DNA from: a virus | Lineage: Duplodnaviria; Heunggongvirae; Uroviricota; Caudoviricetes | Length of the DNA: 64,000 nt | Virus record (IMG/VR): IMGVR_UViG_3300023238_000006 | Span: 1 to 64,000 of that record | Strand: one strand, 5' to 3' | Shown here: one piece after another, positions 2,744 through 56,649 of the stretch | Layout: the number at the start of each line of letters is the position of its first letter | Position numbering within the stretch: position 1 is the stretch's first letter | Notes under the pieces: generated by a model | Told to the model about the DNA's origin: nothing | Seen by the model: only the letters and a program-made list of their open reading frames with translations | The model's database searches: none | Position numbers and translations under genes: made by a program

Positions 2744-3204
2744 AATGTAAACTCACTAGAAGGAGCTACATAGTCTAAATCAACCACACCATTATGGTAA
2801 CTCTCTAACCTCATCTGATCCTGGATCTCATAAGTCTTAGCATTGTAATCCTTAATAATCCTATCAGCAGCATTTACATGGATACCACCCTTCTCTTTGC
2901 TAAGGTAACTAGCTAAGTATCTACTAACAGCAAACACTAGTTCTTCATCAATATCCATAAGGTCAGTATCTAGTGTGGGTGAAACGGGGGTGCGTATAAG
3001 GTAGTCACCTTGTGCAAGGCGTAGGACATCAGCAGTTGTACTGAGTGTCATTAAGTGTAATGAGTCTGCTTGCATAGCAACAGTAGTCAAAGCATACTGA
3101 ACTAGCCCAGACAACACCTCCACATCCTTAGGGATAACGTTATCACCCGTAAGTAGTCCAGTTGTGATGCTCTTAAACATGCTATATGTCATATTATTCT
3201 CCAA
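2740..3204 (-). CDS. Hypothetical protein (154 aa).
   Basis: ORF track, operon context. Confidence 0.45.
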   Translation of the reverse strand: MENNMTYSMFKSITTGLLTGDNVIPKDVEVLSGLVQYALTTVAMQADSLHLMTLSTTADVLRLAQGDYLIRTPVSPTLDTDLMDIDEELVFAVSRYLASYLSKEKGGIHVNAADRIIKDYNAKTYEIQDQMRLESYHNGVVDLDYVAPSSEFTL

Positions 3205-3258
3205 TGGTTTTATTAGGAGAATAATAGTATATTATCGAGGATTTGTCAAGAGGGGTAT

Positions 3259-5738: not shown

Positions 5739-6474
5739 CTATAATACTCTCACCACCAGTAAGTCTAGCCCGTTGTTGAGTTATTAATTCCTTCAACTGA
5801 GCATTCATCTCTTCTTGAGCACTAAGTGCAGCTGCCCCAGGGCTAACTGTAATACTTAACTTCTGCTCCTCAGGTTGCTTAGTCAACACAGCTAACTCTT
5901 TAGCTGCTAAATGGGCAACCATGGGACTAACTGTCATCTTAGTCCCGTCATGGTTTAAACAAGTACCATTCATAATATCAAACTGCTTCTTAACAGCAGC
6001 ATGGAAGAAGGAGCTATATTGTAGGTAGACAGGTATCATCATCTCCTTATCAATCATCCCTACAAGTTTAGTACCATTATACATACTAATATGATTATCA
6101 GTCTGGCGGTTCTCAGCTACCAGTTTATTATACTTCTCAGGGAATACTATACTCCAAGCTTCTTTATTAGTATGGGAACGTTTAAGGTTACAATACTTAA
6201 TAGCATTAACTAAGTCCTTAATACCAACCCCTCTCATACCTCCCATTAAATGGAGGTAGCTCATGAAGTCTTCTTCCATCAACTCCTGTTCAAGGCCTGT
6301 GTCATCACCCATAGCATTGACTAACCTAACTATCTCCTCAGTAACTATTACATTAGTATTCTTAGGTAGCATTGTTTTAATCTTATCTATAGTTATACCC
6401 TGAAGCTCGTCAGGGACCATCCTTGTAGATCCACTACTTGGTGTGGATAGTAACTCTGTTCTAGTCTTTGCCAT
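5686..6474 (-). CDS. Hypothetical protein (262 aa). Its position upstream of terL makes a terminase small subunit possible.
   Basis: ORF track only. The assignment is by position and is speculative. Confidence 0.3.
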   Translation of the reverse strand: MAKTRTELLSTPSSGSTRMVPDELQGITIDKIKTMLPKNTNVIVTEEIVRLVNAMGDDTGLEQELMEEDFMSYLHLMGGMRGVGIKDLVNAIKYCNLKRSHTNKEAWSIVFPEKYNKLVAENRQTDNHISMYNGTKLVGMIDKEMMIPVYLQYSSFFHAAVKKQFDIMNGTCLNHDGTKMTVSPMVAHLAAKELAVLTKQPEEQKLSITVSPGAAALSAQEEMNAQLKELITQQRARLTGGESIIDVQVMGINFEDVGINRG

Positions 6475-6721
6475 TCTTATCTCCTATTGTATATGCATAT
6501 AAACTCTTCCCCACCTGGTGAGTACCTAGGTAGCCTTTATCCATTAACTCTCTCTTATACTTGCGATGAGTACTCACACCCATGCCTGTATGGTTCATCA
6601 TCTCTTCATCAGTTACATCTATATCACATCTGTCTAGCACATTAAGCAGGTAGAAGCTTCCTATACTAAGGGTAGACAGTGATAGTAGCCAATCAATAGC
6701 TGATAGCTTTATTACCTTCAT
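6461..6721 (-). CDS. Hypothetical small protein (86 aa).
   Basis: ORF track, same-strand operon. Confidence 0.35.
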   Translation of the reverse strand: MKVIKLSAIDWLLSLSTLSIGSFYLLNVLDRCDIDVTDEEMMNHTGMGVSTHRKYKRELMDKGYLGTHQVGKSLYAYTIGDKNGKD

Positions 6722-6966
6722 AGTAATCCTTATATTATTATAGTGGGAAGTATAGCAGGTAGTTGTTAAAAAGTAAAGGGTGTTGTTGTGAATGCCAGAG
6801 TAGGATCTGGCTAGTGTGGCTAGTTAGGCCTTTAGGATAAGGTATCCATCAAATCAAATCATTGGCGTGTCGTGAGTAACGGTTACGATACTAGTAGACA
6901 TAGTTAGGGCTTCTTCGGTACGGTATGGTTGGCCGATGCCTAGGTGGGAGTATACAAGGGCTAACC

Positions 6967-6992
6967 TTAATACACTCTTAATACACTCTTAC
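6967..6992. repeat. Tandem direct repeat taatacactct x2 in a minus-strand intergenic region.
   Basis: cttaatacactcttaatacactcttac read directly. Confidence 0.5.
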
Positions 6993-7613: not shown

Positions 7614-7856
7614 TCAGACATCTAACACCTGAGTATGCTGGATGTAGGCATCATAGTTAAACACTTTGTATGTTACCATCATAGTAAAGTCCCCCTCATG
7701 GAGTACATCCATAGATACTTTAATATCCTTCATATGACGTATAGGTTTTGGTATAACACAAGGAGTAAAGAGTGGATGGGAGTTGCACACCATCCCTACT
7801 CTATGATCTCCACTGCAGTACTCACATATAGCTTTGTCTAGTAAAGGCAATATCAT
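7614..7856 (-). CDS. Hypothetical Cys/His-rich small protein (80 aa), possibly zinc-binding.
   Basis: CEYCSGDH...CNSH spacing. Weak. Confidence 0.3.
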   Translation of the reverse strand: MILPLLDKAICEYCSGDHRVGMVCNSHPLFTPCVIPKPIRHMKDIKVSMDVLHEGDFTMMVTYKVFNYDAYIQHTQVLDV

Positions 7857-8002
7857 TAGTTACCCCTCTCCATACTATACTTACCCCCATCAGTAATAGT
7901 AGAACATTTAGGGCATATCATAACCCCAAACATCTTAGGTATAGGTAGAACCTTCTCCCCACACCCAGGGCATTCTACTAGTTTATCTAGTACACTACTC
8001 AT
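7856..8002 (-). CDS. Small zinc-ribbon protein (48 aa, MSSVLDKLVECPGCGEKV...CPKCSTITDG...).
   Basis: Manual reverse-complement translation. Two CxxC pairs. Start and stop are coupled to neighbouring genes (TAATG overlap). Confidence 0.4.
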   Translation of the reverse strand: MSSVLDKLVECPGCGEKVLPIPKMFGVMICPKCSTITDGGKYSMERGN

Positions 8003-12007: not shown

Positions 12008-12423
12008 CACCAGTATACACGTAACGCCGTGTGGACTAGTATCGTCTCTGTCTTACAGAAACTCTAGTAATATAGAAGCCTCGCAAAAACACCACCTAAA
12101 ACCCTTGCAAACATAAGGTACAGCGAGGTTTAGTCGTGTACAATAATAAAAGTGGCATAAAGGCACTTCAGCCCAGCTCTTACTACGAGCCTTCAACAAT
12201 TACATAAATACCATAAAGGCATACTATGAACTACCAACAAGAAGACATTAATAGGAGAAGTCTCAGATAGAGGCTTGCCACTTCTAGCATTAGAACTAGA
12301 GACTAAATATAATCTACCTGCAGAGGTAATTATAGAAAGTGACATAAAGGCCTTCCACCTTTTATTTAAGTATAGAATCAGACCTAATATCCACTACTCT
12401 CCACTAAGCCTAAAGGACTCACA

Positions 12424-12600
12424 ATGACAAGATTAGAATCAGCAATCCAAAGTAGAAAAGAAACAGCAATGGTACAAGCATACCTAAGAACCTCATTCGT
12501 AACGCAATGTAAACCAGTAGGAACTCCTCACCAAGTGGTAAGAGCAACTCCATTCAGCCTCAGACTAGCTACCTTAGAAGTATCAGCGGAGAAGAGATAA
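12424..12600 (+). CDS. Small hypothetical protein (58 aa).
   Basis: Manual translation. RBS taaaggactcacaATG. Confidence 0.35.
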   Translation: MTRLESAIQSRKETAMVQAYLRTSFVTQCKPVGTPHQVVRATPFSLRLATLEVSAEKR

Positions 12601-12731
12601 TGACTACTCGTACTCGTACTAGCCGTAGCTACCGTCCACTTCACTCACCTCGTACACCTAAGCCTCTACATTCTCTTCGAGAATTAATGTGTAATGGTTC
12701 CATAACAATCCTTAGAAACTCAAAAGCATAA
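12600..12731 (+). CDS. Small basic Arg/Thr/Ser/Pro-rich peptide (43 aa, MTTRTRTSRSYRPLHSPRTPKPL...).
   Basis: Manual translation. ATAATG start overlap. It overlaps a nucleotide motif that is also found non-coding at 10690. Confidence 0.25.
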   Translation: MTTRTRTSRSYRPLHSPRTPKPLHSLRELMCNGSITILRNSKA

Positions 12732-12809
12732 TAAATCTATTATAACTAGCCTCAAGCGTACCCTGAAAAGGTGCTAACCAAACTCACCACTAAACCAAGG
12801 AATCAATAA

Positions 12810-13439
12810 ATGAACATCACTAACTTAAGCACAACAGCAACAACTACTCTAGAAGCATTAGTAGCCGGTATCGAAGCAAAAGCATCAGCAAAAGCATTAG
12901 ACCGTAGGATAGCAATCCTTTCCACAGAGAGTGGTGCTAATAAGTTAATGCGTCAGAAAGACGGTAGAACTCTTGGTGCTATCACAACTCGTATTGCAGA
13001 CATCACAGAGAAGCCAGTATTCTCAGGCTTCACATACAATGGTAATGTTGAAACAATAGTAGCCATAGCTTCAGCACTTCAGTATATGAAAGGAGACCTT
13101 AGAGAATCTATCTCTGAAACTATCTGGGCTACATTCGACGGAGATACTCGTACAGACATCATCAATGCATATGGTCGCCTACCGTACTTAGCAGATGAGC
13201 TAGCTATAGAAATCAATGGAGTTGATGTAATCGTAGACCCTAACGCTCGTCCTCTAGCTAAAGCAGGTATTCAGCCTAATGTAGCTGAGTTAGAGATGTT
13301 AGTAAACACTATTGCTATGAACCTAAACCTATTAGGGGAATACAACTGTACTCAAAGAGAAGCGGACAAGAGTTGGGCAGATGCTAATCGCAAGATTAAC
13401 AAAGCAGAAATCCTCGACTCATACAAAGCTTCACTATAG
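12810..13439 (+). CDS. Hypothetical protein (209 aa) immediately upstream of the RNAP gene. Whether it substitutes for the N-terminal domain the RNAP lacks is speculative.
   Basis: ORF track. Adjacency to an RNAP that is truncated at its N-terminus. No detectable motif. Confidence 0.45.
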   Translation: MNITNLSTTATTTLEALVAGIEAKASAKALDRRIAILSTESGANKLMRQKDGRTLGAITTRIADITEKPVFSGFTYNGNVETIVAIASALQYMKGDLRESISETIWATFDGDTRTDIINAYGRLPYLADELAIEINGVDVIVDPNARPLAKAGIQPNVAELEMLVNTIAMNLNLLGEYNCTQREADKSWADANRKINKAEILDSYKASL

Positions 13440-26521: not shown

Positions 26522-26812
26522 ATGGAAACATGTAAAGACTTCATCTTAAAGATGACACAAATGGATAAAGCGGAGCAATTCGTAATAGCAGGTATAGTAC
26601 ATAGCTGGACACCAGAGTCCTCAATAGGTTCAGTAGTTATTAAGACTACTGATATGAGCAGTGCAGATGCTAATAAGTTTATTAAAGGCATTAAGACCCT
26701 AACAGCTAAAGGCTTAGTACGTAGAATTAAGAGGTCTCATTATATGATGCACCCTAAAACTTTAGTACCTAGAGATAAAGAACTCGCTATGGAGACATGG
26801 GAGGGGCTGTAA
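26522..26812 (+). CDS. Hypothetical small protein (96 aa), possibly DNA-binding.
   Basis: ORF track. Basic C-terminal half. Confidence 0.45.
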   Translation: METCKDFILKMTQMDKAEQFVIAGIVHSWTPESSIGSVVIKTTDMSSADANKFIKGIKTLTAKGLVRRIKRSHYMMHPKTLVPRDKELAMETWEGL

Positions 26813-27846
26813 TGGCTAGAAAATTGCTACCAGCGGATATCTTACAAAGATTCATAACCACACATGGGCAAACCTATGACTACACTAACAGTGATATAAC
26901 TACTAGAACAACAAAAATCTCAATAAGATGCAGGGTTCACGGGCCTTTTACACAGATGCCTAAAGAGCATATGCTGGGACAAGGATGCCCTAAGTGTGGG
27001 CATTTAGCCACAGCGGCTGCTTTAAGGCACTCTCAAGAAGAATTTGTACTAAAGGTGCAGGTAATCCACAATAACAGGTATGACTACTCATTAGTGAAGT
27101 ATACGTCTGATGCTGATAGCATTGATATAATTTGCAACACTCACGGTGTATTCTCACAAATAGCCTCATCCCATGTCCAAGGAAGTGGGTGCCCTAGGTG
27201 TGCAATTGAGAAAACACATAGTGAGGCTACGTATACAACTGCTGAATTCATCGAAAAAGCTAGTGTAAAACATAGTAATTATTACACATACCCAGAGACT
27301 AACTATGTTAAAGGTACTGTTAAAGTGGTGATAACATGCCCTGTTCATGGGACTTTTCAACAAACACCAGTGGCACACCTAACAGGCCAGGGGTGCAAAG
27401 TGTGTGTCACTGCAGAAAGAGGGCTAAAAACCAGAAACTCAACAGCTAACTTTATAGAGCAGGCAGGTAAAGTGCATGGTAATAAATACTGTTATGCGAA
27501 TACCTCTTATGTACTATCTGTTGAAAAAGTTACTATTACATGCCCTATACACGGGGACTTCACGCAGACTCCTACTAATCATCTGTATGGTTATGGATGT
27601 AGTAGATGTGGTGTGGTAAAATCAAATAAAAGGTTTCACCACATACCCACAACGCTTTACTACTTTAAAATAAAAGATTGTTGGAAAGTGGGCATAACAG
27701 TATTTGATGTAAAAACACGTTACAACACTGTGGATCACTCCAATATTAGTGATTTGACAACATGGAAATTCTCATCAGGCAAAGAAGCTTATGAGTATGA
27801 GCAGAATATCATATCACTTAACAAAGAACATGCCTATACGGGTTAA
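26797..27846 (+). CDS. Putative homing-endonuclease-like protein with four tandem zinc-ribbon repeats (HG-F-Q-P--H--G-GCP-C) and a C-terminal T5orf172/GIY-YIG-like domain.
   Basis: VHGPFTQMPKEHMLGQGCPKCG, THGVFSQIASSHVQGSGCPRCA, VHGTFQQTPVAHLTGQGCKVCV, IHGDFTQTPTNHLYGYGCSRCG, then LYYFKIKDCWKVGIT. Confidence 0.55.
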   Translation: MGGAVMARKLLPADILQRFITTHGQTYDYTNSDITTRTTKISIRCRVHGPFTQMPKEHMLGQGCPKCGHLATAAALRHSQEEFVLKVQVIHNNRYDYSLVKYTSDADSIDIICNTHGVFSQIASSHVQGSGCPRCAIEKTHSEATYTTAEFIEKASVKHSNYYTYPETNYVKGTVKVVITCPVHGTFQQTPVAHLTGQGCKVCVTAERGLKTRNSTANFIEQAGKVHGNKYCYANTSYVLSVEKVTITCPIHGDFTQTPTNHLYGYGCSRCGVVKSNKRFHHIPTTLYYFKIKDCWKVGITVFDVKTRYNTVDHSNISDLTTWKFSSGKEAYEYEQNIISLNKEHAYTG

Positions 27847-31489: not shown

Positions 31490-32323
31490 ATGTTTAAAGA
31501 CAAAACAATTGCCATATACGACATTGAAAGTCCTTGGATAACTGATGCAGGAATCTCTGCCTTAACCCAAATATATTGTATAGGGGTGGTAACACTACTA
31601 AATGGCAATATCATAGATAAGAAGATGTATACCGAACACTGGACTACCTACTCAGATGGTTCATTAGTAGAATGTATGACTGCATTAAACTCTGCAGACA
31701 TTCGTGTAGCATTCAACAACATTGGATTCGATGACGTTGTAATGTCTAACGTTATAGGTGTAGGGATGCCTATAATATCTAGCACTCTGGACTTCAACTC
31801 CTTAGACTTAATCATATGCGCTAAGCTATGCTACAGCAAAGATGAACTAATGGCTATAGATATAGAGCTAAACCTAGATAAAGCCTTATGGGGTTCTTAC
31901 TCCTTACGAGCCTTTGGAGCTCGTCTAGGCAACGCTAAGATGCACTTCGATGAATTCGATGGTGGACTTACAGAAGACCTCTGTACGTACTGTATACAGG
32001 ATTGTGTGGTAACTGCAGACCTGTTTATACACCTGACTCAAAAAGAAAACTTTCCGATAGCTGCTGTACTAACAATAGAACATAAAGCTAGCACAATCAT
32101 CCAAGAGCAGACATTCCACGGATTTTATATTGATATAACTAAGACCAGAGCCCTTAACACTAAACTTCTCAAAGAGAAGCTAGAGATAGCTACTGAACTA
32201 AGCAAGACCTTTATGCCCAAATGGCTACCAGACGGTAAGGTACTTACCTATAAAAAGAAAAGTATAACTAGGAAGTTTCTTCCTAACAACAGTTACATTC
32301 CCCTACTGGGCACAAAGGTTTAA
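31490..32323 (+). CDS. Family A (T7-like) DNA polymerase, N-terminal fragment: 3'-5' proofreading exonuclease domain plus the start of the thumb (277 aa).
   Basis: Exo I IAIYDIES. Exo II FNNIGFDD (T7 FHNGHKYD). Exo III YCIQDCVVTADLF (T7 YNVQDVVVTKALL). Collinear with T7 gp5 residues about 1-300. Confidence 0.8.
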   Translation: MFKDKTIAIYDIESPWITDAGISALTQIYCIGVVTLLNGNIIDKKMYTEHWTTYSDGSLVECMTALNSADIRVAFNNIGFDDVVMSNVIGVGMPIISSTLDFNSLDLIICAKLCYSKDELMAIDIELNLDKALWGSYSLRAFGARLGNAKMHFDEFDGGLTEDLCTYCIQDCVVTADLFIHLTQKENFPIAAVLTIEHKASTIIQEQTFHGFYIDITKTRALNTKLLKEKLEIATELSKTFMPKWLPDGKVLTYKKKSITRKFLPNNSYIPLLGTKV

Positions 32324-34348: not shown

Positions 34349-34424
34349 GTACCATTAGCTTAATCGGTAAAAAGCGTCGACTATTAAAACATAAGATACT
34401 GGTTTGAATCCAGTATGGTACACA
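34349..34424 (+). tRNA. tRNA-like element with acceptor GTACCAT/ATGGTAC, U8, a D-arm GCTT-AATCGGTAAA-AAGC containing GG, and a T-arm ACTGG-TTTGAAT-CCAGT. The anticodon stem does not pair.
   Basis: Manual folding. Probable degenerate or pseudo-tRNA. Confidence 0.2.
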
Positions 34425-36062: not shown

Positions 36063-36603
36063 TACAACAATAGAATGGCAATCCCCTGAGACAACACCAG
36101 CAGGTGATCCGTTCCTAACAGTAAAGAAAGCTAGAGGTTACTACTACTACGCAGAGCGTGGGGGAGTAGACTCTATAGCCTTCGTACTGCTGGATAAAAC
36201 AGCTAACAAGATTGGTCTTATACTAGAGAGTAAACCTCCTATGGATGAAATGGCTTCAATTGAAGTTGACTACATCACTGCATTTGGGGGGTCTATAGAC
36301 TCACCAGACTCTAAGACTGATATAGTTATAACTGAGGTATTAGAGGAAGCTGGTTACGTAGTAACAGCTGATAATGTAACTGAAGTTGGATCAACTGTGG
36401 TATCGACCCAAATGAGTCAAACACTTTACGCCTACACAGTAGACGTTACAGGTATACCTAAGACTGCAGAGACTGAGTACGAGTCTCAAGGTAAAGGTGA
36501 TAGAACACAGTGGATGACATTCACTGAAGCATTAGCAAACTCTGACTGGAAGTCTATATTTATTATGACTATGTTAGGGCACAAGCTAGATGGAGCTAAA
36601 TAA
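36055..36603 (+). CDS. Nudix hydrolase (ADP-ribose pyrophosphatase-like, 182 aa).
   Basis: Nudix-box-like GGSIDSPDSKTDIVITEVLEEAGY. 8-nt overlap with the NMNAT gene. In other phages NMNAT and Nudix are fused as NatV. Confidence 0.6.
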   Translation: MTDTTIEWQSPETTPAGDPFLTVKKARGYYYYAERGGVDSIAFVLLDKTANKIGLILESKPPMDEMASIEVDYITAFGGSIDSPDSKTDIVITEVLEEAGYVVTADNVTEVGSTVVSTQMSQTLYAYTVDVTGIPKTAETEYESQGKGDRTQWMTFTEALANSDWKSIFIMTMLGHKLDGAK

Positions 36604-37997
36604 TGCAATCAATACTAAACCTAGCTGATTCCTACAAATTCTCACATTCAAGCCAGTACCCAAAGAATATGGTAAGTCAATATGACTACATGGAATCACG
36701 TGGGGGCACTTACCCTGCAACAGTATTCGTAGGACTTCAGTACTACTTATTCAAGTACCTAACAGTACCTGTGACTGAGTTAGAAGTAAAACTAACAGCG
36801 GCTAAAGCTGCTCGTCACGGAGTACCTTTCGATCTAAATGGTTGGATGCATATTGTAAACAACTGTGATGGCTTAATTCCCGTAGAAATTAAAGCAGTAC
36901 CAGAAGGCAGCCTAATACCTACCAAGATGGTACTAGTAACTATAGAATCAACAGACACAGCTGTTCCATGGATAGCAGGATTCTTAGAGACTATCTTAAT
37001 GAAGATCTGGTACCCAACTACAATAGCTACTAAATCTTACTACACTCGTAAGATGCTAGAGAAGTACGGAGATCCTGAATGGGCTAAGTTCGCTTACCAC
37101 AACTTCGGAGACCGTGGCGCTACCTCAGTAGAATCTGCAGCTATAGGAGGCTTTGCCCACTACACCCAATTCATGGGAACTGATAACTTCAACTCCCTAG
37201 ACATTGCAGAGAACTACTACGCTACAACAGCCATGCCAGCATACTCAGTATACGCTACCGAGCACTCTAGCACTACCTCACACGGTCGTGAAGGAGAAGA
37301 AGAGTTTGTCTATACTCAGCTATTAGAAAACCCTGGTAAGGCCATCATGAGCTTCGTAGCTGATTCATACGACGTGTATGAGTTTACTAAGTTCTGTACA
37401 GCCCCTAACTCTCGTATTAGAGAACTAATTGAGTCTAGACCTAGCCAAAAGTTAGTCCTCCGCCCTGACTCTGGTAACCCTATTGAAGTGATGACACAGA
37501 TGTTAGCTATAGTTAAAGCCAATAATTGGGGCTATACTGAGACTCCTACAGGATTACTATTCAATCAACTAGGTATCTTATGGGGTGATGGAATCACTCC
37601 TGAAGTAATAGAAGAAATCTTAGCTATGGTACCACGTGTGGGCTATGCAGCTGGGAACTTCATATTTGGAAGTGGTGGTGATCTCATGCAGAACATCACT
37701 AGAGACACTCAGAGGTTTGCTATTAAATGTAGTAGTATCACTGTAGCACATGATGAGTTTATAGGTAATACCTCGTACGAAGAGGTAGATGTCTACAAAG
37801 ACCCTATTACTGACCCTGGTAAAGCCTCTAAACGTGGTAAGGTAACTACTTACATTAGAGAAGATGGTACTTACTTCGTAGACCTGGTAACAAATAAAAC
37901 ACCTGATGCTAAGAATGCTTTAACAACTGTATTCTTAAATGGTACGGTAACTAAAGAGTATACACTAGAAGAGATACGTAACAACTCAAAGGACTAA
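36603..37997 (+). CDS. nadV: Nicotinamide phosphoribosyltransferase (NAMPT/NadV, 464 aa).
   Basis: N-terminal LNLADSYKFSHSSQYP (the DSYK motif of NAMPT/NAPRT). Length is typical. Co-operonic with NMNAT. Confidence 0.75.
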   Translation: MQSILNLADSYKFSHSSQYPKNMVSQYDYMESRGGTYPATVFVGLQYYLFKYLTVPVTELEVKLTAAKAARHGVPFDLNGWMHIVNNCDGLIPVEIKAVPEGSLIPTKMVLVTIESTDTAVPWIAGFLETILMKIWYPTTIATKSYYTRKMLEKYGDPEWAKFAYHNFGDRGATSVESAAIGGFAHYTQFMGTDNFNSLDIAENYYATTAMPAYSVYATEHSSTTSHGREGEEEFVYTQLLENPGKAIMSFVADSYDVYEFTKFCTAPNSRIRELIESRPSQKLVLRPDSGNPIEVMTQMLAIVKANNWGYTETPTGLLFNQLGILWGDGITPEVIEEILAMVPRVGYAAGNFIFGSGGDLMQNITRDTQRFAIKCSSITVAHDEFIGNTSYEEVDVYKDPITDPGKASKRGKVTTYIREDGTYFVDLVTNKTPDAKNALTTVFLNGTVTKEYTLEEIRNNSKD

Positions 37998-37999
37998 CT

Positions 38000-38665
38000 A
38001 TGGCTAAACTATCAATCTGCTGCGTCTCGGACACACATGGTAAACACAGCCAACTAACCCTCTCTAAATACCCGGCTGATGTACTTGTACATGCTGGGGA
38101 TTGGACCGGAGGTAAGGACATAGCCCTAACTGAGACTATAGCCTTCCTAGACTGGTTCTCTGAGCAACCATTTGAACACAAGCTATTCATAGCCGGTAAC
38201 CACGAGAGAACTGTAGAGGCTAACCCCCAAGACTTTCAAGACTTACTAAAGCACTACCCAACTATAGAGTACATTCACCATAAAGCGGTAACTATTTCCG
38301 GTATTAACTTCTACGGCAGTAACTACTCTAACGAGTTCTGTGACTGGGCATTTATGGAAGAAGAGCCTGAACTATCTAAAGTCTGGGACCTAATCCCTAA
38401 TGATACTGATGTCCTTGTGACTCATGGGCCAGCCTATGGCTGTCACGATCAAGTTAAGCATGCTTACGGACGTGATCCCCATGTAGGGAGTAGATCTCTT
38501 CATCATAAGAAACTATCCCTCCAGGATACATTAAAACTCCACATAAGTGGGCACATCCACGAAAGTTATGGCACATCCTCAGATCTATGTATAAATGTAT
38601 GTGCCTCGGTACTAAATGAGAAATATCAATTAGTAAATGAACCAGTAGTAATAACACTACACTAG
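38000..38665 (+). CDS. Calcineurin-like metallophosphoesterase (221 aa).
   Basis: CVSDTHG, GDWTGG, IAGNHE and the later GHIHE are the MPP family motif series. Confidence 0.65.
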   Translation: MAKLSICCVSDTHGKHSQLTLSKYPADVLVHAGDWTGGKDIALTETIAFLDWFSEQPFEHKLFIAGNHERTVEANPQDFQDLLKHYPTIEYIHHKAVTISGINFYGSNYSNEFCDWAFMEEEPELSKVWDLIPNDTDVLVTHGPAYGCHDQVKHAYGRDPHVGSRSLHHKKLSLQDTLKLHISGHIHESYGTSSDLCINVCASVLNEKYQLVNEPVVITLH

Positions 38666-38738: not shown

Positions 38739-39023
38739 ATGATCAAGACTATCAAAAACAGAAGAGCATACCCAGCAGCACTTAAGATGGCTGCACTAAA
38801 GGCATCTAAAGGCAAGAAGGCTAAATCAAATGCAGCAATTGCAGATGACTTCAACATCCACAAGTCAACTCTAGGGAATTGGAGACGTGCTGCAGGTATT
38901 CAACGCCCCCAGCCTACAGGCTTAGCTAGACACAACTCTGATCAAAAGGCTGAGAAAGCTCACAACACTCCTACTATGCAAACAAACGGTACAATCATGT
39001 ACCGTGGTGTAGAGTACAAGTAA
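38739..39023 (+). CDS. Small basic protein (94 aa) with a putative helix-turn-helix (IADDFNIHKSTLGNWRR).
   Basis: ORF track. The HTH resembles the transposase/sigma-region-4 type. Confidence 0.45.
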   Translation: MIKTIKNRRAYPAALKMAALKASKGKKAKSNAAIADDFNIHKSTLGNWRRAAGIQRPQPTGLARHNSDQKAEKAHNTPTMQTNGTIMYRGVEYK

Positions 39024-39255
39024 TTAGTTGGTTGAGGTGAAAGGCCTCTTATAAATAGCGTAGAGCTTACCACATAGTCTACCTAGACTCTAAACTTGCT
39101 GGCAACCAACCAGAGTGTTGATGGCTACACAGGTTTAACCATCTGCGAATGAGGCTCAGCCTAGCATAAGGCTAGTAGAGGCATGGTACCTCTACGATCA
39201 TTTATACTACTTATGAGTATAACGGTACCAATAATTAATATAAATAGGAATAACT

Positions 39256-40239
39256 ATGGCAACAGCACTACAAGACTTAATAAATATAATTAAAACAGAA
39301 GACAGTACATTGTTGCAATCAATAATAAAAGATATTGATGCATCAGACTACTCATGGGGTATGCCTGAGTTTTTAACCCACTTAACAACTTCACAGGTAG
39401 CTAGATTAACTACTAGCCAAATAACTCTACTAAAGAATATGAGGTTTAAAAGGGGGCAAACCTTAAGGCTGTATAGAGAAAGATGTATATTTGCAACAAC
39501 AATATCAGGAGCGCACTCTAAACAATGGGCCTTCATGCATGCCTCGGCGTTGTTTGCTAAGGAAGACCTTATCTACCTCAGCAAGTATGAAACTACTAAA
39601 TGGAAGGAAGCTAACCCATCAGGTGGTAGCACTAAAAAAGGTACTGAGCTTAACTTCGCTATGGACGACTTCTCTCTAGCACTATTCAAAGCCTCTATAA
39701 CTAAAGGCTTTCTCCGTACTGAAGCTAAGAACTACATCTTAGCAGTGAACAAAGCCTACTCTAGTGTGACTGCTACTGACCCTGTTAAGAAGCTAGCAGC
39801 AACTAAAATTCGTAACAAGTTCTACGCAGTTATACTAAACAACACCGAGGTACATACTAACGCTATGTTAAAGGAGCTACAATGGACAGACTTAGAGCCT
39901 GCAAAAGGTGGATACTACCAAGCCTCTGAAGACGAGGCACTATCCTTCTCATTCGGCGGTCACAGACATTTACTAAGCTACACAACTACTAACGCTATGG
40001 AGACGTACTCAACTGATATTGAAATAACTACCCACAACAACGGTACTGACAACGAACGTCATGCTGATCGTTTAGCCAGTGCTACCAGTATACTACTAAC
40101 TATTCACGCAGCAACTGGCAATACAGCTTACTTAGCACTAGCTACTCGTATGCTAAAAAACATCACATCTGATAGTAAGATTAAAGTACTTAACACAACC
40201 TCTGCCGTAGCTATGCTACGAGCTATACTAACTAAATAA
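39256..40239 (+). CDS. Hypothetical protein (327 aa) immediately upstream of the AAA/VWA pair.
   Basis: ORF track. No motif recognised. Confidence 0.55.
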   Translation: MATALQDLINIIKTEDSTLLQSIIKDIDASDYSWGMPEFLTHLTTSQVARLTTSQITLLKNMRFKRGQTLRLYRERCIFATTISGAHSKQWAFMHASALFAKEDLIYLSKYETTKWKEANPSGGSTKKGTELNFAMDDFSLALFKASITKGFLRTEAKNYILAVNKAYSSVTATDPVKKLAATKIRNKFYAVILNNTEVHTNAMLKELQWTDLEPAKGGYYQASEDEALSFSFGGHRHLLSYTTTNAMETYSTDIEITTHNNGTDNERHADRLASATSILLTIHAATGNTAYLALATRMLKNITSDSKIKVLNTTSAVAMLRAILTK

Positions 40240-40247
40240 GGATTACA

Positions 40248-41444
40248 ATGAAAGATACTAAACAACAAACAAGAATTAAGACTAACCTAAAAGCACAGCT
40301 AGACGGGGTAGCAATACTACCACTATGTTTATTTGGAGGACCAGGGTTAGGTAAAAGCTCTATTATCTCCCAAGCAGCTAGAGACTTAGGTGCCTCAGAA
40401 AATGTAGTATCAATTTCATCAGTAAACTTCGAGTACTTCTCAGGTATACCTGCCTTTAGTACTGATAGCTCTCTTGATCAATACTCAGTATCAGGGGCTA
40501 AAGGTGTGCAAGCAACAATATGGTCTATAGCAGAACTTATTATGGCTACTAACCGTGTTGCAGAAAAGAACCCTAACGGTGCTGTACTACACCTAGAAGA
40601 TATGCATACAGCAGATAAAACTACTGAAAATGTTATGTACCAGCTATTATTAGACAGAAAGCTTGGTGACTACAAGCTACATCCTAAAGTGGCTATCATA
40701 TGCTCTATGAACCACTCTAAGGAATCTGGAGGGGGGCACTTCAACTCAGCAGCAGTAAAGTCAAGACTATCTCTAATGGAGTATGTATTTAACTTCGACG
40801 ACTGGTACACTAACTTTGGACTATCTCTCCACCCTTGGTTATCTTCATTCTTAAAGGCTAACCAACAGTACATCATAGAGACTGAGAGCAAGACTTTAGA
40901 GCCTTCAGGGTCAGCTAGATCATACAGTAAACTATCACTAGAGTTTAACCTCTACAATGATGTGGACTTAAATGAGATGTACAAAGACTTAGCATCTGGA
41001 GTATTATCAATCAACGCTGTCAACTCTTTAGAGAAACACGTAATTTACTACCAGAAGATTGACTTCACAGGTATTGTCAAGCATAGAACAATACCTACCC
41101 TATCATCTCTCCCAGACCTTGATAAAGTATTATGGGGATATGTATTCCATAGTGTTGTAACTCCAGAAGATGGTGTCTACATCATCGACCTTATCAATGC
41201 TATAACCACTCAGCCTCATTACCAAAGCCTACTAGGCTTTCTATCAGCTGAGATTCACTCTAAGTACAAGATTCAACTATCTGGTGAGACAATCACACCA
41301 GGGCAAAACCTTGTACTAAGTAAGATCATGGGTTCATTCGATCCATCTCTATACAAGGTTACAGCACCAGTCGCTAAGAAGCTTGCAGAAGCTGAGCTAG
41401 CCAACAAAACAGAGGTCATGAGTCTCATGGCTAAATACATGTAA
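40248..41444 (+). CDS. AAA+ ATPase of the MoxR/CobS-like type (398 aa).
   Basis: Walker A LFGGPGLGKSS. Walker-B-like AVLHLEDMH. Size and architecture are those of CobS/MoxR-like ATPases commonly found paired with VWA proteins. Confidence 0.65.
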   Translation: MKDTKQQTRIKTNLKAQLDGVAILPLCLFGGPGLGKSSIISQAARDLGASENVVSISSVNFEYFSGIPAFSTDSSLDQYSVSGAKGVQATIWSIAELIMATNRVAEKNPNGAVLHLEDMHTADKTTENVMYQLLLDRKLGDYKLHPKVAIICSMNHSKESGGGHFNSAAVKSRLSLMEYVFNFDDWYTNFGLSLHPWLSSFLKANQQYIIETESKTLEPSGSARSYSKLSLEFNLYNDVDLNEMYKDLASGVLSINAVNSLEKHVIYYQKIDFTGIVKHRTIPTLSSLPDLDKVLWGYVFHSVVTPEDGVYIIDLINAITTQPHYQSLLGFLSAEIHSKYKIQLSGETITPGQNLVLSKIMGSFDPSLYKVTAPVAKKLAEAELANKTEVMSLMAKYM

Positions 41445-41453
41445 GGAACTACA

Positions 41454-42899
41454 ATGACAAAACAAGAATTCTTAATTGAACTAAAAGCAATCGTGATAAC
41501 AGGCATGGTTAAAGAGGTTAACATTATGTTAGGGGCTAGCAAGGCTGCTTTCCTATCAACATCACTCCTCCTTAAACTTCAACCAACATTTGTAGCTATA
41601 GAATCTCCCTACGCTAGACTACCTAAAGCTTCAACTATCGAAGACTTAGATGAAATCTTCAAAGCTTACATACCTATTGATGATCCTTCATTACTAGTAT
41701 TCGAAATTGCATACGATAGTAAGAAGACTATTAAACGTGCACTGAAACTTGCTGAAAAACACACAGCTTACTTCGCATTCCACTACATCAAACATCTACA
41801 TGCAACTCTTGCACAAGTTAACACTACTGCATACGTTCAAGCTATGATAAAACAAGTAGCTGGTAAAGAGCACCCATTCCTCCTAGCATCTGCAGTAATT
41901 GACAGATCTATGAGTGATATGGCTCTTAAAACACTAGCAGCAGCTGGTGTTAACACTAGGCCATACGAGAATGTTATTGAGCATATGGAGACTACTAATA
42001 TCGCTGAAGAGTTAGAGCTACTAGCTTCAGCTATGGAGTCTAAAGTTATCACTAAGATCCCTGGCTATATTCGTAAATTACGCATAAAGCCAATTGATAA
42101 CATCGCAGAGCTATTAGAAGTAGTGGCTAACCACGGCCAAGGTCAAGGCGAGTTCGGGTACCAGCAAGGTCAAAGAACTGCTAGTGTAATAGTAGACCTG
42201 TCACAAGCTCTTAACCACACCCTCTCATCATCTTGTAAAGGTACTGCAGTTGGTGACCTTATGGCTACTAGCTTTGAAGCTAATCACATCGATGCCTTAT
42301 GGTTCGATGACTTAACTAAAACTGTATTATCATCAGTAATTGAAAAGTCTAACGAAGGTTATGCGTCATGGGGTAATCTGTCTAAGACTAAACGCCACTT
42401 ATACCATAGCCCAGTTAGAATCAATACTGACCACAAGTTACAACTATATGTAACAATAGACCAAAGTGGGTCTGTATCTACTGGAGACCTTCAGAAGATA
42501 CTATCAGTATTTGAACAATACTCACACCTAATATCTCAAGCAGTAGTTATGCATCACACAGCTAGCGTTATACAGCAGTATGAGCTAGATGATAGCTATG
42601 GAGAGTTAATAGATCACCCAGAGTTTAAAGCGGCCTTTGCTTGTCGCCACGGTGATGGTGGGACATCTCACGGAGATTGTGTTAAGCGTATAGCTAAACA
42701 TATCACTAAGAACAACATCGACCCTGAGAGAGCTATTTGGCTCAGCTTCAGCGATGGCTATAGCGACTTAGAAGACGTATGCATGACTGAACATAGTATT
42801 ATGGACAAGTTAGAAAAGTTCTTCATCAGAGATAGTAGAGGTAGAAATATTATCCTACATACAATCCCTGGTAAGAACCACAATATAGTAACGCCTTAG
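41454..42899 (+). CDS. von Willebrand factor A (VWA) domain protein, CobT-like (481 aa).
   Basis: MIDAS motif YVTIDQSGSVS (DxSxS) in the C-terminal half. Immediately downstream of the AAA+ gene. Confidence 0.6.
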   Translation: MTKQEFLIELKAIVITGMVKEVNIMLGASKAAFLSTSLLLKLQPTFVAIESPYARLPKASTIEDLDEIFKAYIPIDDPSLLVFEIAYDSKKTIKRALKLAEKHTAYFAFHYIKHLHATLAQVNTTAYVQAMIKQVAGKEHPFLLASAVIDRSMSDMALKTLAAAGVNTRPYENVIEHMETTNIAEELELLASAMESKVITKIPGYIRKLRIKPIDNIAELLEVVANHGQGQGEFGYQQGQRTASVIVDLSQALNHTLSSSCKGTAVGDLMATSFEANHIDALWFDDLTKTVLSSVIEKSNEGYASWGNLSKTKRHLYHSPVRINTDHKLQLYVTIDQSGSVSTGDLQKILSVFEQYSHLISQAVVMHHTASVIQQYELDDSYGELIDHPEFKAAFACRHGDGGTSHGDCVKRIAKHITKNNIDPERAIWLSFSDGYSDLEDVCMTEHSIMDKLEKFFIRDSRGRNIILHTIPGKNHNIVTP

Positions 42900-42907
42900 G
42901 AGATGCA

Positions 42908-43600
42908 ATGGATAACTTCGAATACTTAGTTAGAGTTGCAGAAATGGACACACTAACTACCCTTAAAGCTAAGGAGCAGTTCATTAGAGAGCAGGTAGCT
43001 GCTATCTATGAAATAGATGGGATGGATAGCTGGAGCCATTATGTTAATGACTCAAATGTTGCCGCAGTTATACCTAGATATAAACTACTTACTAAAGCGT
43101 TAAATCTCTATGATGGGGCTAATGACTTACCAGATAAACTTCTTAAAGTTAAACGTAGGTTATGTGCTAGTTTACTAACTAGGTTTGTAGAGCAAAAGCA
43201 TAACTACCCAGACTTCGTAAATTTCTTTGAGTTTGATGCAGAGTTAAACTTTCGTGGAATGTATGGGGGGGACGCTATATCTGTAATACTTATGATAGGC
43301 ACAGAGGTGCCTATACAAAAGGTAGAGTTGACGCTACATGCACCATACAGACTGCAGTATGTGTTTAACGACATACTAACAGACAGTGATAATTATAGCC
43401 TTAGAAATATACTAGCAGCAGAAGACTTAAAAGCTGCACTACATAACCGTGAGGATCTTACAATGCTTAATCAACTAATAGATAAGGCTTACAGTGACCT
43501 TAATAAAAGATCCTTACCAGCTGACCTATCTAAAGTACCTATAAACCTAGAACGCCTAAACACTATCTCAGCCACTATGATGGCAAAGTTATGCCCTTAG
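42908..43600 (+). CDS. Hypothetical protein (230 aa). It overlaps the DNAP polymerase ORF by 10 nt in another frame.
   Basis: ORF track. Not similar to DNAP thumb sequences by eye. Confidence 0.5.
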   Translation: MDNFEYLVRVAEMDTLTTLKAKEQFIREQVAAIYEIDGMDSWSHYVNDSNVAAVIPRYKLLTKALNLYDGANDLPDKLLKVKRRLCASLLTRFVEQKHNYPDFVNFFEFDAELNFRGMYGGDAISVILMIGTEVPIQKVELTLHAPYRLQYVFNDILTDSDNYSLRNILAAEDLKAALHNREDLTMLNQLIDKAYSDLNKRSLPADLSKVPINLERLNTISATMMAKLCP

Positions 43601-44958
43601 CCCCTTACAAAATCCCAAGTGGGAGGTACTTGAAAAATGGTAGTTGGAAACCTCCAGGTAAAAAAACGTTCAAATGGTTCTCAACTCCTCATAGGACGAT
43701 AAACGTAACTAGGGAAGGGGAGTACCAACCTATTAAGTATGAGCCGTTTAATCCTGGGTCACGTTCACATATAAAGAAGTGGATGGAAGAGGACTATGGC
43801 TACACGTTTCCTTATTATACAGAGAAAGGATCTCCTAAAGTTGACCCCGAGTCGTTAGACAATATGAACCACCCAGCAGGAAAGATGCTTAAAAGGTTTT
43901 TAAAGGTTGGAAAGGACCAGTCGCAAATAGGCAATGGGGCAGGATCTCTTATAAGTCACTACAATGAAAACACAAAAGGTATACACTGTAGAGTTGACAC
44001 TAATGGCACTATTACAGGCAGATTCTCGGTAAATTCTCCAAATATGGCACAGATACCATCTCAAGAGGAATTCAGGGAGCTGTTCTCTGCACCAGAGGGC
44101 TGGACCTTTGTAGGTGTGGATTTTTCTCAGCAGGAGCTAGTAAATCTAGCGCATTTCCTGTACCCTTATGATGGCGGAGCATATGCTAAAACTGTTGCTG
44201 ATGGTAATAAAGAAGATGAAACAGATCCACATAATGTACATAAAAGGCTGGCTGGGCTAGATACTAGAGGGCAGGCTAAAGTGTTTGGATTCCAGTACCT
44301 GTATGGTGCAGGTGAAGTTGTTCTAGGAGCAGCTGTAAGGTCAGAGCTGTTAGCCGATTACACAGATAAAGAATATGCAACAGCTAAGAAGAAAATAGAC
44401 AGACGTATAGTAATTATAGACGATATGCCTCTATTCCCTATAAAGAAGGATAAGTATATACAAGTCACAGAACTTCTAATACATCAAGCTATATACGGCA
44501 ACCGCATAGTTACCAAATTCGAAAAGAACTTTCCTGGTTTATCAGAGCTAATCAAAGCACTCCAGAAAGAAGCTAAGGACTACGGCACTATCACTATACC
44601 TGGCGGGAGGGTTATGCCTTGCAGATCCTCCAGGAACGCGCTGAACACTGCTATGCAATCCCTAGGAGGCACCGCAATGAAGTACTATTTGGTAGCTATA
44701 CATAGAGAATTAGCTAAAGAAGGTATTATACATGGAAAGCACTTCATACAGCAAGCAACAATATATGATGAGGTTGATATGATAGTAAAAACTGAGTACG
44801 CAGAAGCAGTTGGCAAAACTCTAGAACGCTGCTTCTCAATTATATCAGAGGAACTATCCCTAAACACGCACTACAAAGGCGAAGCCCTTCTTGGGGGAAT
44901 AAGTATAGATACTGACACAAAGTTGCCTATAGCAAATTCTTGGTGGGGTTGTCATTAA
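43591..44958 (+). CDS. Family A (T7-like) DNA polymerase, C-terminal fragment: thumb, palm and fingers (455 aa).
   Basis: EPFNPGSRSHIKK matches T7 VVFNPSSRDHIQKK. TGRFSVNSPNMAQIPS matches TGRxSSxxPNLQNIP. Motif A VGVDFSQQEL. Motif B GQAKVFGFQYLYGAG. Motif C IYDEVDMIV. The C-terminus ...NSWWGCH matches T7 ...NWAICH. Confidence 0.85.
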   Translation: MPLAPYKIPSGRYLKNGSWKPPGKKTFKWFSTPHRTINVTREGEYQPIKYEPFNPGSRSHIKKWMEEDYGYTFPYYTEKGSPKVDPESLDNMNHPAGKMLKRFLKVGKDQSQIGNGAGSLISHYNENTKGIHCRVDTNGTITGRFSVNSPNMAQIPSQEEFRELFSAPEGWTFVGVDFSQQELVNLAHFLYPYDGGAYAKTVADGNKEDETDPHNVHKRLAGLDTRGQAKVFGFQYLYGAGEVVLGAAVRSELLADYTDKEYATAKKKIDRRIVIIDDMPLFPIKKDKYIQVTELLIHQAIYGNRIVTKFEKNFPGLSELIKALQKEAKDYGTITIPGGRVMPCRSSRNALNTAMQSLGGTAMKYYLVAIHRELAKEGIIHGKHFIQQATIYDEVDMIVKTEYAEAVGKTLERCFSIISEELSLNTHYKGEALLGGISIDTDTKLPIANSWWGCH

Positions 44959-46736: not shown

Positions 46737-47690
46737 ATGGCTAAAAACAAACTCACGAAGAAGGTTCTCAATGAAAATTGGGAAGAGATACTACGTCTAA
46801 AAGCCAAGGGTGAATCTACTACAGATATCGCTATGCTATTTGGGGTACCAAGGGGGTCACTGGTTGCCAGGTTGAAGAAGAAAGTAATTTCTAACACACC
46901 TGCTAACCCCACATCACGGACTTTAATCATTGATATAGAGAATGCACCCATGTTAAGTTACCACTGGGGAATTTACCAGCAAGACATAGGCAAACCGATG
47001 CGTGTAGAAGGCAACCGCTCATACATGATGAGCTGTGCAATGGGGTGGTTAGATGAAGACAAGGTACATTACTTTGAAACTCGTACTGAGGATGACTCAA
47101 CACTAACAGCTAAGATACTAGAATTTCTAGACGAAGCTGACTTTGTAATAGGTCACAATGCTAAACGCTTTGATATGAAAAAGATCAATGCCTATGCTAT
47201 CCTTAACAACCTCTCACCTCCTAGCCCCTACAAAGTTATAGACACTATGTTGATGGCTAAGCAGCAGTTCTCATTCGAACGTAACACCCTCGAATACCTC
47301 TCAAACGCACTATGTACTCAGACTAAATCTGCCCATGGAAAGTTCAAAGGCTTTGAACTGTGGAGTGAATGTATGAAAGGCAATGAAGAAGCTTGGGCAG
47401 AGATGAAGCACTACAACATCCAAGATGTTGTTGCTACTAAAGAACTCTACCTGAAGCTACGTCCTTGGGTTAAAGGTCACCCCAATATGGTTGCTAAATC
47501 TGGCTCTGAAAAGAACAGATGTACTACATGTGGCTCATCAGATATTAGTCCTCATGGTTACCATGTGTCTAATTCTGGCAAGTTCCAGCAATACAAGTGT
47601 AATGACTGCGGGGGATTCTCTAAGGCTCGTAAGAACCTTCTACCAAAAGAAGCTAAGGCATCACTGCTAACAGCTATACCTAACGGTTAA
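46737..47690 (+). CDS. Stand-alone DnaQ/DNAP-type 3'-5' exonuclease (317 aa) with an N-terminal HTH-like segment and a C-terminal CxxC...CxxC zinc ribbon.
   Basis: Exo I LIIDIENAP. Exo II VIGHNAKRFDMKKI. Exo III YNIQDVVATKELYLKL. These are close to T7 gp5 motifs and to the 31490 ORF. C-terminal CTTCGSS...CNDCGG. Confidence 0.6.
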   Translation: MAKNKLTKKVLNENWEEILRLKAKGESTTDIAMLFGVPRGSLVARLKKKVISNTPANPTSRTLIIDIENAPMLSYHWGIYQQDIGKPMRVEGNRSYMMSCAMGWLDEDKVHYFETRTEDDSTLTAKILEFLDEADFVIGHNAKRFDMKKINAYAILNNLSPPSPYKVIDTMLMAKQQFSFERNTLEYLSNALCTQTKSAHGKFKGFELWSECMKGNEEAWAEMKHYNIQDVVATKELYLKLRPWVKGHPNMVAKSGSEKNRCTTCGSSDISPHGYHVSNSGKFQQYKCNDCGGFSKARKNLLPKEAKASLLTAIPNG

Positions 47691-55770: not shown

Positions 55771-56649
55771 ATGGCTAGAAAACTAACACTTAAAGAGTTC
55801 ATAGACAGGGCGACCGCTGTACATGATGCTATGTACGGATACGGCAATGCTGTCTACACCAATAGTAGTACTAAGATAACAATAGTATGTAAGGTACATG
55901 GGTGCTTTACCCAGCAGCCATCTGCACATCTTAACGGGCAAGGATGCCCTACCTGTTCTGGAAGAGGTAACTACAAATTACCAACTTTCAGAAAATTAGT
56001 AGGCATTAAACATAAAGGTAAATACCTATATACCTTTCCTAATGAGTTACATGCAGATACTGTATTAAAGATTGCATGCCCATACCATGGAGAGTTTAAG
56101 CAACGAGCTTCAAGTCACCTAGAGGGTTATGGGTGTAAAGAATGTGCCTATGACACTAAGGCTAATAGCTACGAAGAATTTGTAGCTAGAGCTACTGCAA
56201 AGCATGGCAATGAGTATGGATATACTAAAAACTTATTTAACAAGAGAGATCCGGGTATCTATGCTAATTGTAGCAAGCATGGGCCTTTCACGCAGAATAA
56301 GGGTAACCATTTACAAGGGCATGGGTGCCCTCAATGTTACACTCCTGGGTTCGATAAGAATAAGCCTGGTACTTTGTATTACTTAGAAGTGGTCACTGTT
56401 AGTGGAACCCTGTGGAAAATAGGGATTACTAACAGAACCATAGATGAACGATTCACAGCTAAAGACCTACTGAGTATTACTGTTGTGTACCAACATACTT
56501 TTAAATCTGGCAAAGATGCTAGTGACCTTGAGAAACTGCTGCTTAAGGAGTATAAGCATCTGCAGTACGACGGCGCTAAAGTGCTTAGAGATGGCAACAC
56601 AGAATTATTCACTAGTGATATAACACTCAATGACCCAATGAAGTCTTAA
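55771..56649 (+). CDS. Putative homing-endonuclease-like protein with three zinc-ribbon repeats plus a T5orf172/GIY-YIG-like domain (292 aa).
   Basis: VHGCFTQQPSAHLNGQGCPTCSG, YHGEFKQRASSHLEGYGCKECA, KHGPFTQNKGNHLQGHGCPQCY, then TLYYLEVVTVSGTLWKIGITNRTIDERF. Confidence 0.55.
   Translation: MARKLTLKEFIDRATAVHDAMYGYGNAVYTNSSTKITIVCKVHGCFTQQPSAHLNGQGCPTCSGRGNYKLPTFRKLVGIKHKGKYLYTFPNELHADTVLKIACPYHGEFKQRASSHLEGYGCKECAYDTKANSYEEFVARATAKHGNEYGYTKNLFNKRDPGIYANCSKHGPFTQNKGNHLQGHGCPQCYTPGFDKNKPGTLYYLEVVTVSGTLWKIGITNRTIDERFTAKDLLSITVVYQHTFKSGKDASDLEKLLLKEYKHLQYDGAKVLRDGNTELFTSDITLNDPMKS

Follow-up and report, generated by a model that had tools for sequence, protein, structure and literature searches.

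A divergent N4 gp24/gp25-type AAA+ ATPase and VWA protein pair with a degenerate zincin-like domain and two conserved partners in a putative four-gene phage operon

A number of cellular systems, RavA-ViaA, CbbQ-CbbO, NorQ-NorD, CoxD-CoxE, and Rea1/Midasin among them, combine an ATPase of the AAA_5 class with an adaptor whose metal ion-dependent adhesion site (MIDAS) docks a client through an acidic residue. In phages, the closest described system is the gp24/gp25 pair of N4, an AAA+ ATPase and a von Willebrand factor A (VWA or vWA) protein that count among the core genes in N4-like phages (Schitoviridae), belong to the middle transcripts, and have no known function (PMC7650795, PMC4193335, PMC2784036). 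Comparative-genomics papers assign gp24 and gp25 to a core of approximately 14 genes in these phages, and neither is among the virion proteins that PMC4193335 names for N4. A MoxR ATPase paired with a metallopeptidase-vWA protein has also been described in group 2.2 jumbo phages, where a role as a virion-assembly chaperone was proposed (Iyer et al. 2021, PMC7824862), and ternary MoxR-vWA systems are known as VMAP/iSTAND systems (Kaur et al. 2020, PMC7159879). Here, we describe a pair of this kind in a 64,000-nucleotide (nt) stretch of DNA from a member of the Caudoviricetes (IMG/VR record IMGVR_UViG_3300023238_000006, positions 1 to 64,000), hereafter the window. In it, the ATPase (AAA398) and the 481-amino-acid (aa) VWA protein (VWA481) are flanked by orphan proteins of 327 aa (U327) and 230 aa (U230), with which they probably form one operon.

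As judged from sequence comparison, AAA398 and VWA481 are distant homologs of N4 gp24 (phrog_1297) and gp25 (DUF2201_N plus DUF2201, phrog_1314), and together they are a divergent member of a known, functionally uncharacterized phage gene pair. AAA398 matched phrog_1297 at 3e-30 over residues 24-282, and VWA481 matched phrog_1314, a family that carries the PHROGs label "HNH endonuclease", at 4.5e-4. A tblastn search with the ATPase recovered 244 phage records, the best hits listed being all N4-like (e.g., Enquatrovirinae and Gamaleyavirus). A hidden Markov model of the ATPase family matched the ATPase of the Klebsiella N4-like phage VLCpiP4b (Schitoviridae) at 2.4e-25. In that phage, the ATPase is directly followed by a 383-aa protein made up of DUF2201_N (putative metallopeptidase, 2e-55) and DUF2201 (VWA-like, 3e-36) domains, and hhalign aligned residues 273-462 of VWA481 to this phage-protein DUF2201 with 94% probability (E 1e-7). 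The best matches of the window TerL were likewise N4-like phages, at 32% identity. These PHROG, tblastn, VLCpiP4b, hhalign, and TerL matches are the reason for regarding the pair as a divergent N4-type member, and the TerL, PolA, primase, and RNR (ribonucleotide reductase) genes show that its context is a phage genome. An initial annotation of this region had missed both the homology to the N4 core pair and the apparent degenerate zincin-like domain on the VWA protein.

The likeness to gp24/gp25 extends beyond membership in the same PHROGs. In both cases, the genes are adjacent and co-directional (with a gap of 9 nt in the window), the VWA protein bears a zincin-like N-terminal domain (a probable one in the window) and a DUF2201 domain with a DxSGS MIDAS motif, and the pair is set among replication genes of the middle phase. 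The differences are also considerable. The window ATPase is only approximately 24% identical to Schitoviridae ATPases and has an extra C-terminal region of approximately 115 aa, VWA481 found no match by tblastn among cultured phages, and the HExxH motif has been lost in the subclade to which the window belongs. Neither U327 nor U230 turned up in the single N4-like locus searched or, by tblastn, among cultured phages. Megablast of the region found no near-identical phage in INPHARED, and a scan of IMG/VR with the single AAA protein as query returned no relatives.

The motifs of the ATPase are well preserved. Its Walker A motif, GGPGLGKSS, spans residues 30-38, and the sequence VLHLED lies at residues 113-118. 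In an alignment of 22 sequences with 37-67% identity, G30, G33, G35, K36, D118, N155, R173, and R224 were invariant, the last three occupying the positions expected of sensor 1, the arginine finger, and sensor 2, respectively. All Pfam matches of the window proteins fall under the curated cut-offs; for AAA398, the AAA_5 match (3.9e-4, 20.9 bits) is just under the cut-off of 22, and the related ATPase of lineage L018 clears that model at 27.3 bits. AAA_3, the model for MoxR proper, gave no Pfam match to the window ATPase. When PDB sequences were searched with the ATPase profile, the hits, with Midasin on top, covered hardly more than the N-terminal P-loop region.

The ATPase gene of the window runs without interruption. 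Four relatives carry a group I intron at one and the same site of this gene (Rfam RF00028, 50-91 bits; L048, 3506-3878; L053, 4310-4603; L046, 4920-5208; L047, 4497-4835), which is the invariant SG/IP junction after residue 66 in the numbering of the window protein. Group I introns of phages usually occupy conserved, important genes, and their recurrence at one invariant ATPase motif fits the importance of the ATPase gene. The gene is also split at the same SG/IP site in L039 (5606-6684) and L057 (2814-4486). The insert in L039 encodes an HNH_3 endonuclease, and no Rfam intron was detected in it.

The VWA protein combines a complete MIDAS with what appears to be a dead peptidase domain. The DQSGS motif occupies residues 336-340, and D336, S338, S340, T404, and D434 are invariant in 9 homologs, which makes up a complete MIDAS; of the 11 other family members scanned, 10 gave sub-threshold matches to DUF2201. 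The pairing of an ATPase, probably of the AAA_5/MoxR class, with a MIDAS-bearing VWA protein, as read by the initial annotation, is borne out, and the motif residues of both are invariant among relatives. The VWA domain reaches to approximately 20 residues from the C-terminus, and the additional domain is N-terminal. In this domain, the window protein and its nearest relatives have KHLHA where the zincin HExxH motif is expected. The relatives L015, L038, and L039 retain HEVQH...AEDHAIN, and in them DUF2201_N is matched below threshold (E 0.006-0.1) at just this position, so that the domain is recognizable in the window protein only by way of its relatives. Other lineages of the clade have KELQH, KHIY, or KYML at this position, the N4-like proteins have HELWH, and a second phage group has HENMH; despite these differences, the MIDAS is intact across the lineages. 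We conclude that a DUF2201_N-type domain is probably present in the window protein with its catalytic motif missing. Because HExxH has been lost while the MIDAS is intact everywhere, proteolysis seems to be dispensable in much of the clade and metal-dependent docking does not, and a destroyed zincin motif next to an intact MIDAS points to a non-proteolytic adaptor.

Five co-directional open reading frames (ORFs) were confirmed on the plus strand exactly where the initial annotation had placed them, and because homologs of all five proteins are present on independent metagenomic contigs, they are real genes rather than chance ORFs. The U327, ATPase, VWA, and U230 genes are separated by gaps of 8, 9, and 8 nt, each is preceded by an AGGA-type ribosome-binding site, and the U230 gene overlaps the following polymerase gene by 10 nt. 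The four genes thus probably constitute one operon (39256-43600), which in the window runs directly into the DNA polymerase gene. The fifth gene, which encodes a small helix-turn-helix (HTH) protein, is set apart from U327 by a 232-nt spacer, and its homologs lie directly upstream of U327 in six lineages only (the window, L002-4/27, L015, L046, L047, and L048). For both of these reasons, the conserved unit is one of four genes and not the five-gene system first envisaged; the tight coupling ascribed to all five ORFs holds for the four and fails for the HTH gene.

Loci were gathered around homologs of the ATPase, VWA protein, and U230 and then searched with profiles built from those loci, and the counts that follow cover the 27 lineages of this uncultured clade that were fully covered, with enough DNA on both sides. 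Both U327 and U230 lie beside the pair in 17 of the 27, spanning 38-64% AAA identity, in two gene orders: U327-AAA-VWA-U230 (10 lineages) and AAA-VWA-(x)-U327-U230 (7 lineages). Four lineages have the pair with U230 only, one has the pair with U327 only, and in five deeper lineages (L043 and L056-L059) the pair stands alone. In most lineages, the U230 gene is the immediate neighbor of the VWA gene, and in the second gene order it overlaps U327. In L005, U230 has been relocated upstream and is still beside the pair. In the reverse direction, starting from members of the U230 family, the VWA gene was directly upstream in all 3 informative contigs. The linkage of the two flanking unknowns to the pair, which had been suspected from the window, is thus largely upheld, and flanking ORFs that are unconserved while the pair persists alone, the pattern named in advance as speaking for a generic two-gene unit, are not what is seen within the clade.

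Several loci depart from this compact arrangement. Runs of small ORFs separate the ATPase and VWA genes in L005 (9196-10496), L015 (3467-5155, including a DUF723 protein), L038 (661-2493), and L039 (7689-8540), and despite these runs, the ATPase and VWA genes are both always retained. Two AP2-domain proteins, which share 61% identity, flank the module in L005. L037, a contig of a Campylobacterota metagenome-assembled genome (JAYELQ010000244.1), has at 2392-6980, in this order, a Fic-like gene, an ATPase of 392 aa, an unrelated protein of 368 aa, and a VWA protein of 497 aa with KELQH. The neighborhood also has an IS200-like transposase and a DUF1566-like gene, and the U230 gene is absent. This pair may belong to a cellular genome or a prophage, or its place there may be a binning artifact.

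The two partners are orphans. U327 had no match in Pfam, PHROGs, NCBIfam, PADLOC, PDB sequences, or, by tblastn, INPHARED phages. Its strongly conserved central core includes FxMDxFSLxxFKxSIxKxFLRTEAKN and RNKFY, and its family is found either upstream of AAA or in the interval from VWA to U230. A first hhalign comparison of U327 with the 348-359-aa proteins of L007-9 gave only 47% probability, a question settled later via intermediate sequences: iterative searches from three intermediates converged on one U327 superfamily and recruited nothing else from the loci, and hhalign of the near against the far group gave 92% probability, with controls at or below 0.2%. U230 was likewise without a match in the five databases named and, by tblastn, in cultured phages. 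Clustered at 50% identity, its family falls into 34 groups, which with the exception of two measure 217-247 aa. Structure prediction had been suggested for both unknowns, and it succeeded for one of them. The AlphaFold2 (AF2) model of U230 is confident (pLDDT 92.1, pTM 0.85), with nine helices and one 2-strand hairpin, and found no specific structural match; the AF2 model of U327 (6 sequences) is poor (pLDDT 54.6), mostly helical with low confidence, and unfit for a fold search.

U230 is also not confined to the operon. A short paralogue of its N-terminal part lies downstream in the window (Table 1), matched by U230 profiles at 1.3e-5 to 5.3e-9, and similar short paralogues are present in L002, L015, L034, L038, L046, and L047. 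The N-terminal part, which starts MDxFEY, recurs in shorter proteins at 6681-7139 of L002 and at 7624-7956 and 10515-10898 of L015, and L047 has a second full-length copy at 12245-12919. These paralogues elsewhere in the genomes indicate a family that has expanded and is not restricted to the neighborhood of the ATPase and VWA genes.

The HTH protein itself has weak matches to HTH_Tnp_1 (2.7e-4) and to the transcriptional repressor family phrog_5301 (4.7e-4). Directly after its stop codon, a 31-nt element is the sole alignable part of the spacer that leads to U327 (Table 1). The element ends in TATAAATAG, a sequence that occurs twice in the window, both times within the spacer (second copy, 39239-39247), and two base pairs of its 4-bp stem change in a compensatory manner, GAGG/CCTC in the window versus ACGG/CCGT in L004. 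A similar element is present in L045, where there is no HTH gene. It could be a promoter of the operon or an operator for the HTH protein, a candidate role suggested by its conservation and position. Scans for sigma-70 promoters and terminators performed at or below chance level, and the spacer (39024-39255), treated as RNA, folds no better than shuffled sequences (z = -1.19) and has no Rfam match.

Table 1. Positions of the module, its upstream element, and neighboring features in the window.
Feature	Position	Strand	Remarks
PolA exonuclease-like fragment	31490-32323		
NAMPT	36603-37997		
Metallophosphoesterase	38000-38665		
Small HTH protein, 94 aa	38739-39023	+	Accessory upstream gene, outside the conserved core
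31-nt conserved element, GGTTGAGGTGAAAGGCCTCTTATAAATAG	39028-39058	+	Directly after the HTH stop codon; kept in five diverged lineages
U327 partner, 327 aa	39256-40239	+	Orphan, mostly helical
AAA+ ATPase, 398 aa, probable AAA_5/MoxR class	40248-41444	+	Homolog of N4 gp24
VWA protein, 481 aa	41454-42899	+	Zincin-like N-terminal domain plus VWA-like C-terminal domain
Degenerate zincin-like (DUF2201_N-type) N-terminal domain, probable	41454-42263 (end approximate)	+	Recognizable via relatives
VWA-like (DUF2201) C-terminal domain with complete MIDAS	42270-42839	+	hhalign, MIDAS residues
U230 partner, 230 aa	42908-43600	+	Helical orphan fold
PolA C-terminal half	43591-44958		
Short U230 N-terminal paralogue, 123 aa	46271-46642	+	Outside the operon

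On balance, we consider it probable that the four-gene operon, with the N4-type pair and U327 and U230, encodes an ATP-driven remodeling or assembly chaperone module. By analogy with characterized MoxR-VWA pairs, the ATPase would assemble as a ring, and the VWA adaptor would dock a client when the metal ion of its MIDAS binds an acidic side chain. The inactivated zincin cleft may grip a polypeptide segment without cleaving it, and ATP hydrolysis would then remodel, assemble, or release the client. U327 and U230 could be clade-specific subunits, co-adaptors, or themselves clients. The client seems more likely to be a non-virion assembly of the middle (replication) phase than a substrate of metal chelation, and the replication and nucleotide-metabolism setting of the module, along with the middle expression of the N4 homologs, favors such a client over virion assembly. 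The cellular pairs and Rea1/Midasin are a template for the mechanism, an ATPase with a MIDAS-bearing adaptor, and differ from the window pair in that AAA398 and VWA481 have no Pfam match to AAA_3 or to these families, in that the adaptor domains are not the same, and in that no metalloenzyme client is evident. A more specific version, which we put forward tentatively, holds that U327, the ATPase, the pseudo-zincin VWA protein, and U230 make up one physical ATP-driven machine in which the orphans would act as MIDAS ligand and client adaptor on the replication or transcription apparatus.

Several points weigh against the chaperone module as a four-protein unit. Beyond the homology, motif state, operon packing, and co-occurrence of the four families observed here, the mechanism is drawn wholly by analogy, as we found no experiment on any family member. 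The Pfam matches of the window proteins lie below the curated cut-offs. Because synteny among related phages persists by descent, adjacency by itself is weak evidence that the proteins form a physical complex, and the linkage argument reaches beyond shared ancestry only through the two gene orders and the rearrangement in L005. Neither partner was detectable beside the pair in L043, L056-L059, the N4-like phages, or the GC-rich L018-25 group. Between the window and L004, U327 and U230 are 25-37% identical, against 59-63% for the AAA and VWA proteins. The parts do not co-evolve strictly, since in L015 U327 is 43% identical to its counterpart in the window, with 34% for AAA and 31% for VWA, and the N-terminal domain of U230 recurs in further small proteins encoded elsewhere in the genomes. 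The lineages without detectable partners, the much faster evolution of U327 and U230 relative to AAA and VWA, the mosaic nature of L015, and the scattered short U230-like paralogues all speak for a generic two-gene unit of the gp24/gp25 type with U327 and U230 as mere co-inherited syntenic neighbors. This explanation is possible, if doubtful, in view of the persistence of both partners beside the pair across the change of gene order in 17 lineages at 38-64% AAA identity, the shifted U230 of L005 that still adjoins the pair, the direct VWA-U230 adjacency in most lineages, and the overlap of U327 with U230 in the second order.

If the pair is a chaperone, its client could instead lie in the virion. 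A MoxR-vWA system is reported to be needed for the assembly of tails in Acidianus two-tailed virus, and a role in virion assembly or maturation was proposed by Iyer et al. 2021 (PMC7824862) for the jumbo-phage pair, whose architecture is the same, with a metallopeptidase domain at the N-terminus of the vWA protein that accompanies the MoxR-class ATPase; in roseophage RPP1, moreover, four virion-protein genes lie near the gp24/gp25 homologs (PMC4193335). We think this role unlikely for the window. The jumbo-phage proposal depends on a peptidase active in the processing of structural proteins, whereas in VWA481 the peptidase motif is dead, and the module sits among replication and nucleotide-metabolism genes with the terminase gene 35 kb away on the opposite strand. 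The N4 homologs, too, are middle transcripts absent from the named N4 virion proteins (PMC4193335). It is more improbable still that the locus is an NTP-dependent ternary conflict or counter-defense system in which U327 or U230 would serve as variable sensor or effector, an idea that goes back to the initial annotation. The MoxR-vWA core with further conserved, faster-evolving partners does resemble the VMAP/iSTAND systems, and one relative, on a Campylobacterota contig, has a Fic-like gene and an IS200-like transposase for neighbors. The vWA protein, on the other hand, has no C-terminal effector domain. The almost all-helical U230 model with its one hairpin is unlike VMAP-C, which is alpha+beta with approximately 7 strands (PMC7159879), a distinction that sets the partners apart by published description and not by profile comparison. 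The genes are also inherited vertically in the virus lineage, syntenic, and core in Schitoviridae, as opposed to the patchy, mobile distribution that conflict systems tend to have and the VMAP/iSTAND systems show among multicellular bacteria. PADLOC was blank for every protein, and a defense or anti-defense system was rejected as a candidate. A metal chelatase of the CobS/CobT or BchI/BchD type is hardly credible. Its sole support is that an AAA_5-type ATPase adjoins a VWA protein and that such genes in marine phages are habitually annotated as cobS/cobT. Pfam and NCBIfam gave no match to CobS_N, CobT, or Mg-chelatase families, the VWA protein has a zincin-like N-terminal domain in place of a CobT or BchD architecture, and the largest ORF of the window is 736 aa (the RNR large subunit), which leaves no gene of CobN or BchH size. 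CobS/CobT was rejected on these grounds, in keeping with the doubt about cobalt chelation already voiced for this locus.

The phage pair is already known, and the locus does not represent a new class of system; what is new is the four-gene composition and the pseudo-peptidase. The two additional conserved partners, which N4 does not offer, suggest what the pair binds, and the natural loss of the peptidase motif with the MIDAS kept would separate adaptor function from proteolysis. The unit is defined by four proteins and has testable residues in K36 of the ATPase, D336/S338 of the VWA protein, and the conserved acidic E172 of U230, with the mechanism of a widespread phage chaperone as the possible payoff. 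Should the four proteins indeed form one physical machine, this would provide a first functional handle on the gp24/gp25 core genes of N4, and the machine would be particular to a clade of large N4-related phages that is widespread and wholly uncultured.

The wider neighborhood of the module is one of replication and nucleotide metabolism, with genes for NAMPT, PolA, exonuclease, primase, RNR, and RNA ligases. The split-polymerase and NAD context described at the outset is confirmed by the PolA pieces and NAMPT (Table 1). The family A DNA polymerase is in pieces, its exonuclease-like fragment and polymerase half being separated by 11 kb, and a separate RNase_H_2-type exonuclease subunit is encoded at 46737-47690 of the window. 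The relatives L008, L009, and L016 have an intact polymerase (709-930 aa), and the ATPase-VWA module is thus not bound to the split.

Further features were noted at a distance from the operon. Within a stretch of the window at 32.3-35.2 kb that has no ORF of at least 90 aa, Rfam finds a tRNA on the plus strand (34349-34422; 46.7 bits against a gathering score of 29), while ARAGORN finds no tRNA in the window. In L039, upstream of the module, a gene for an Anti-Pycsar Apyc1-type metallo-beta-lactamase (1460-2203) stands beside metallophosphoesterase and RtcB genes. The window also has three paralogous HNH-type endonuclease genes (phrog_681/phrog_559), at 4965-5738 on the minus strand and at 26797-27846 and 55771-56649 on the plus strand, which are probably homing endonucleases, a reading that fits the intron-rich and insertion-rich genomes of the relatives.

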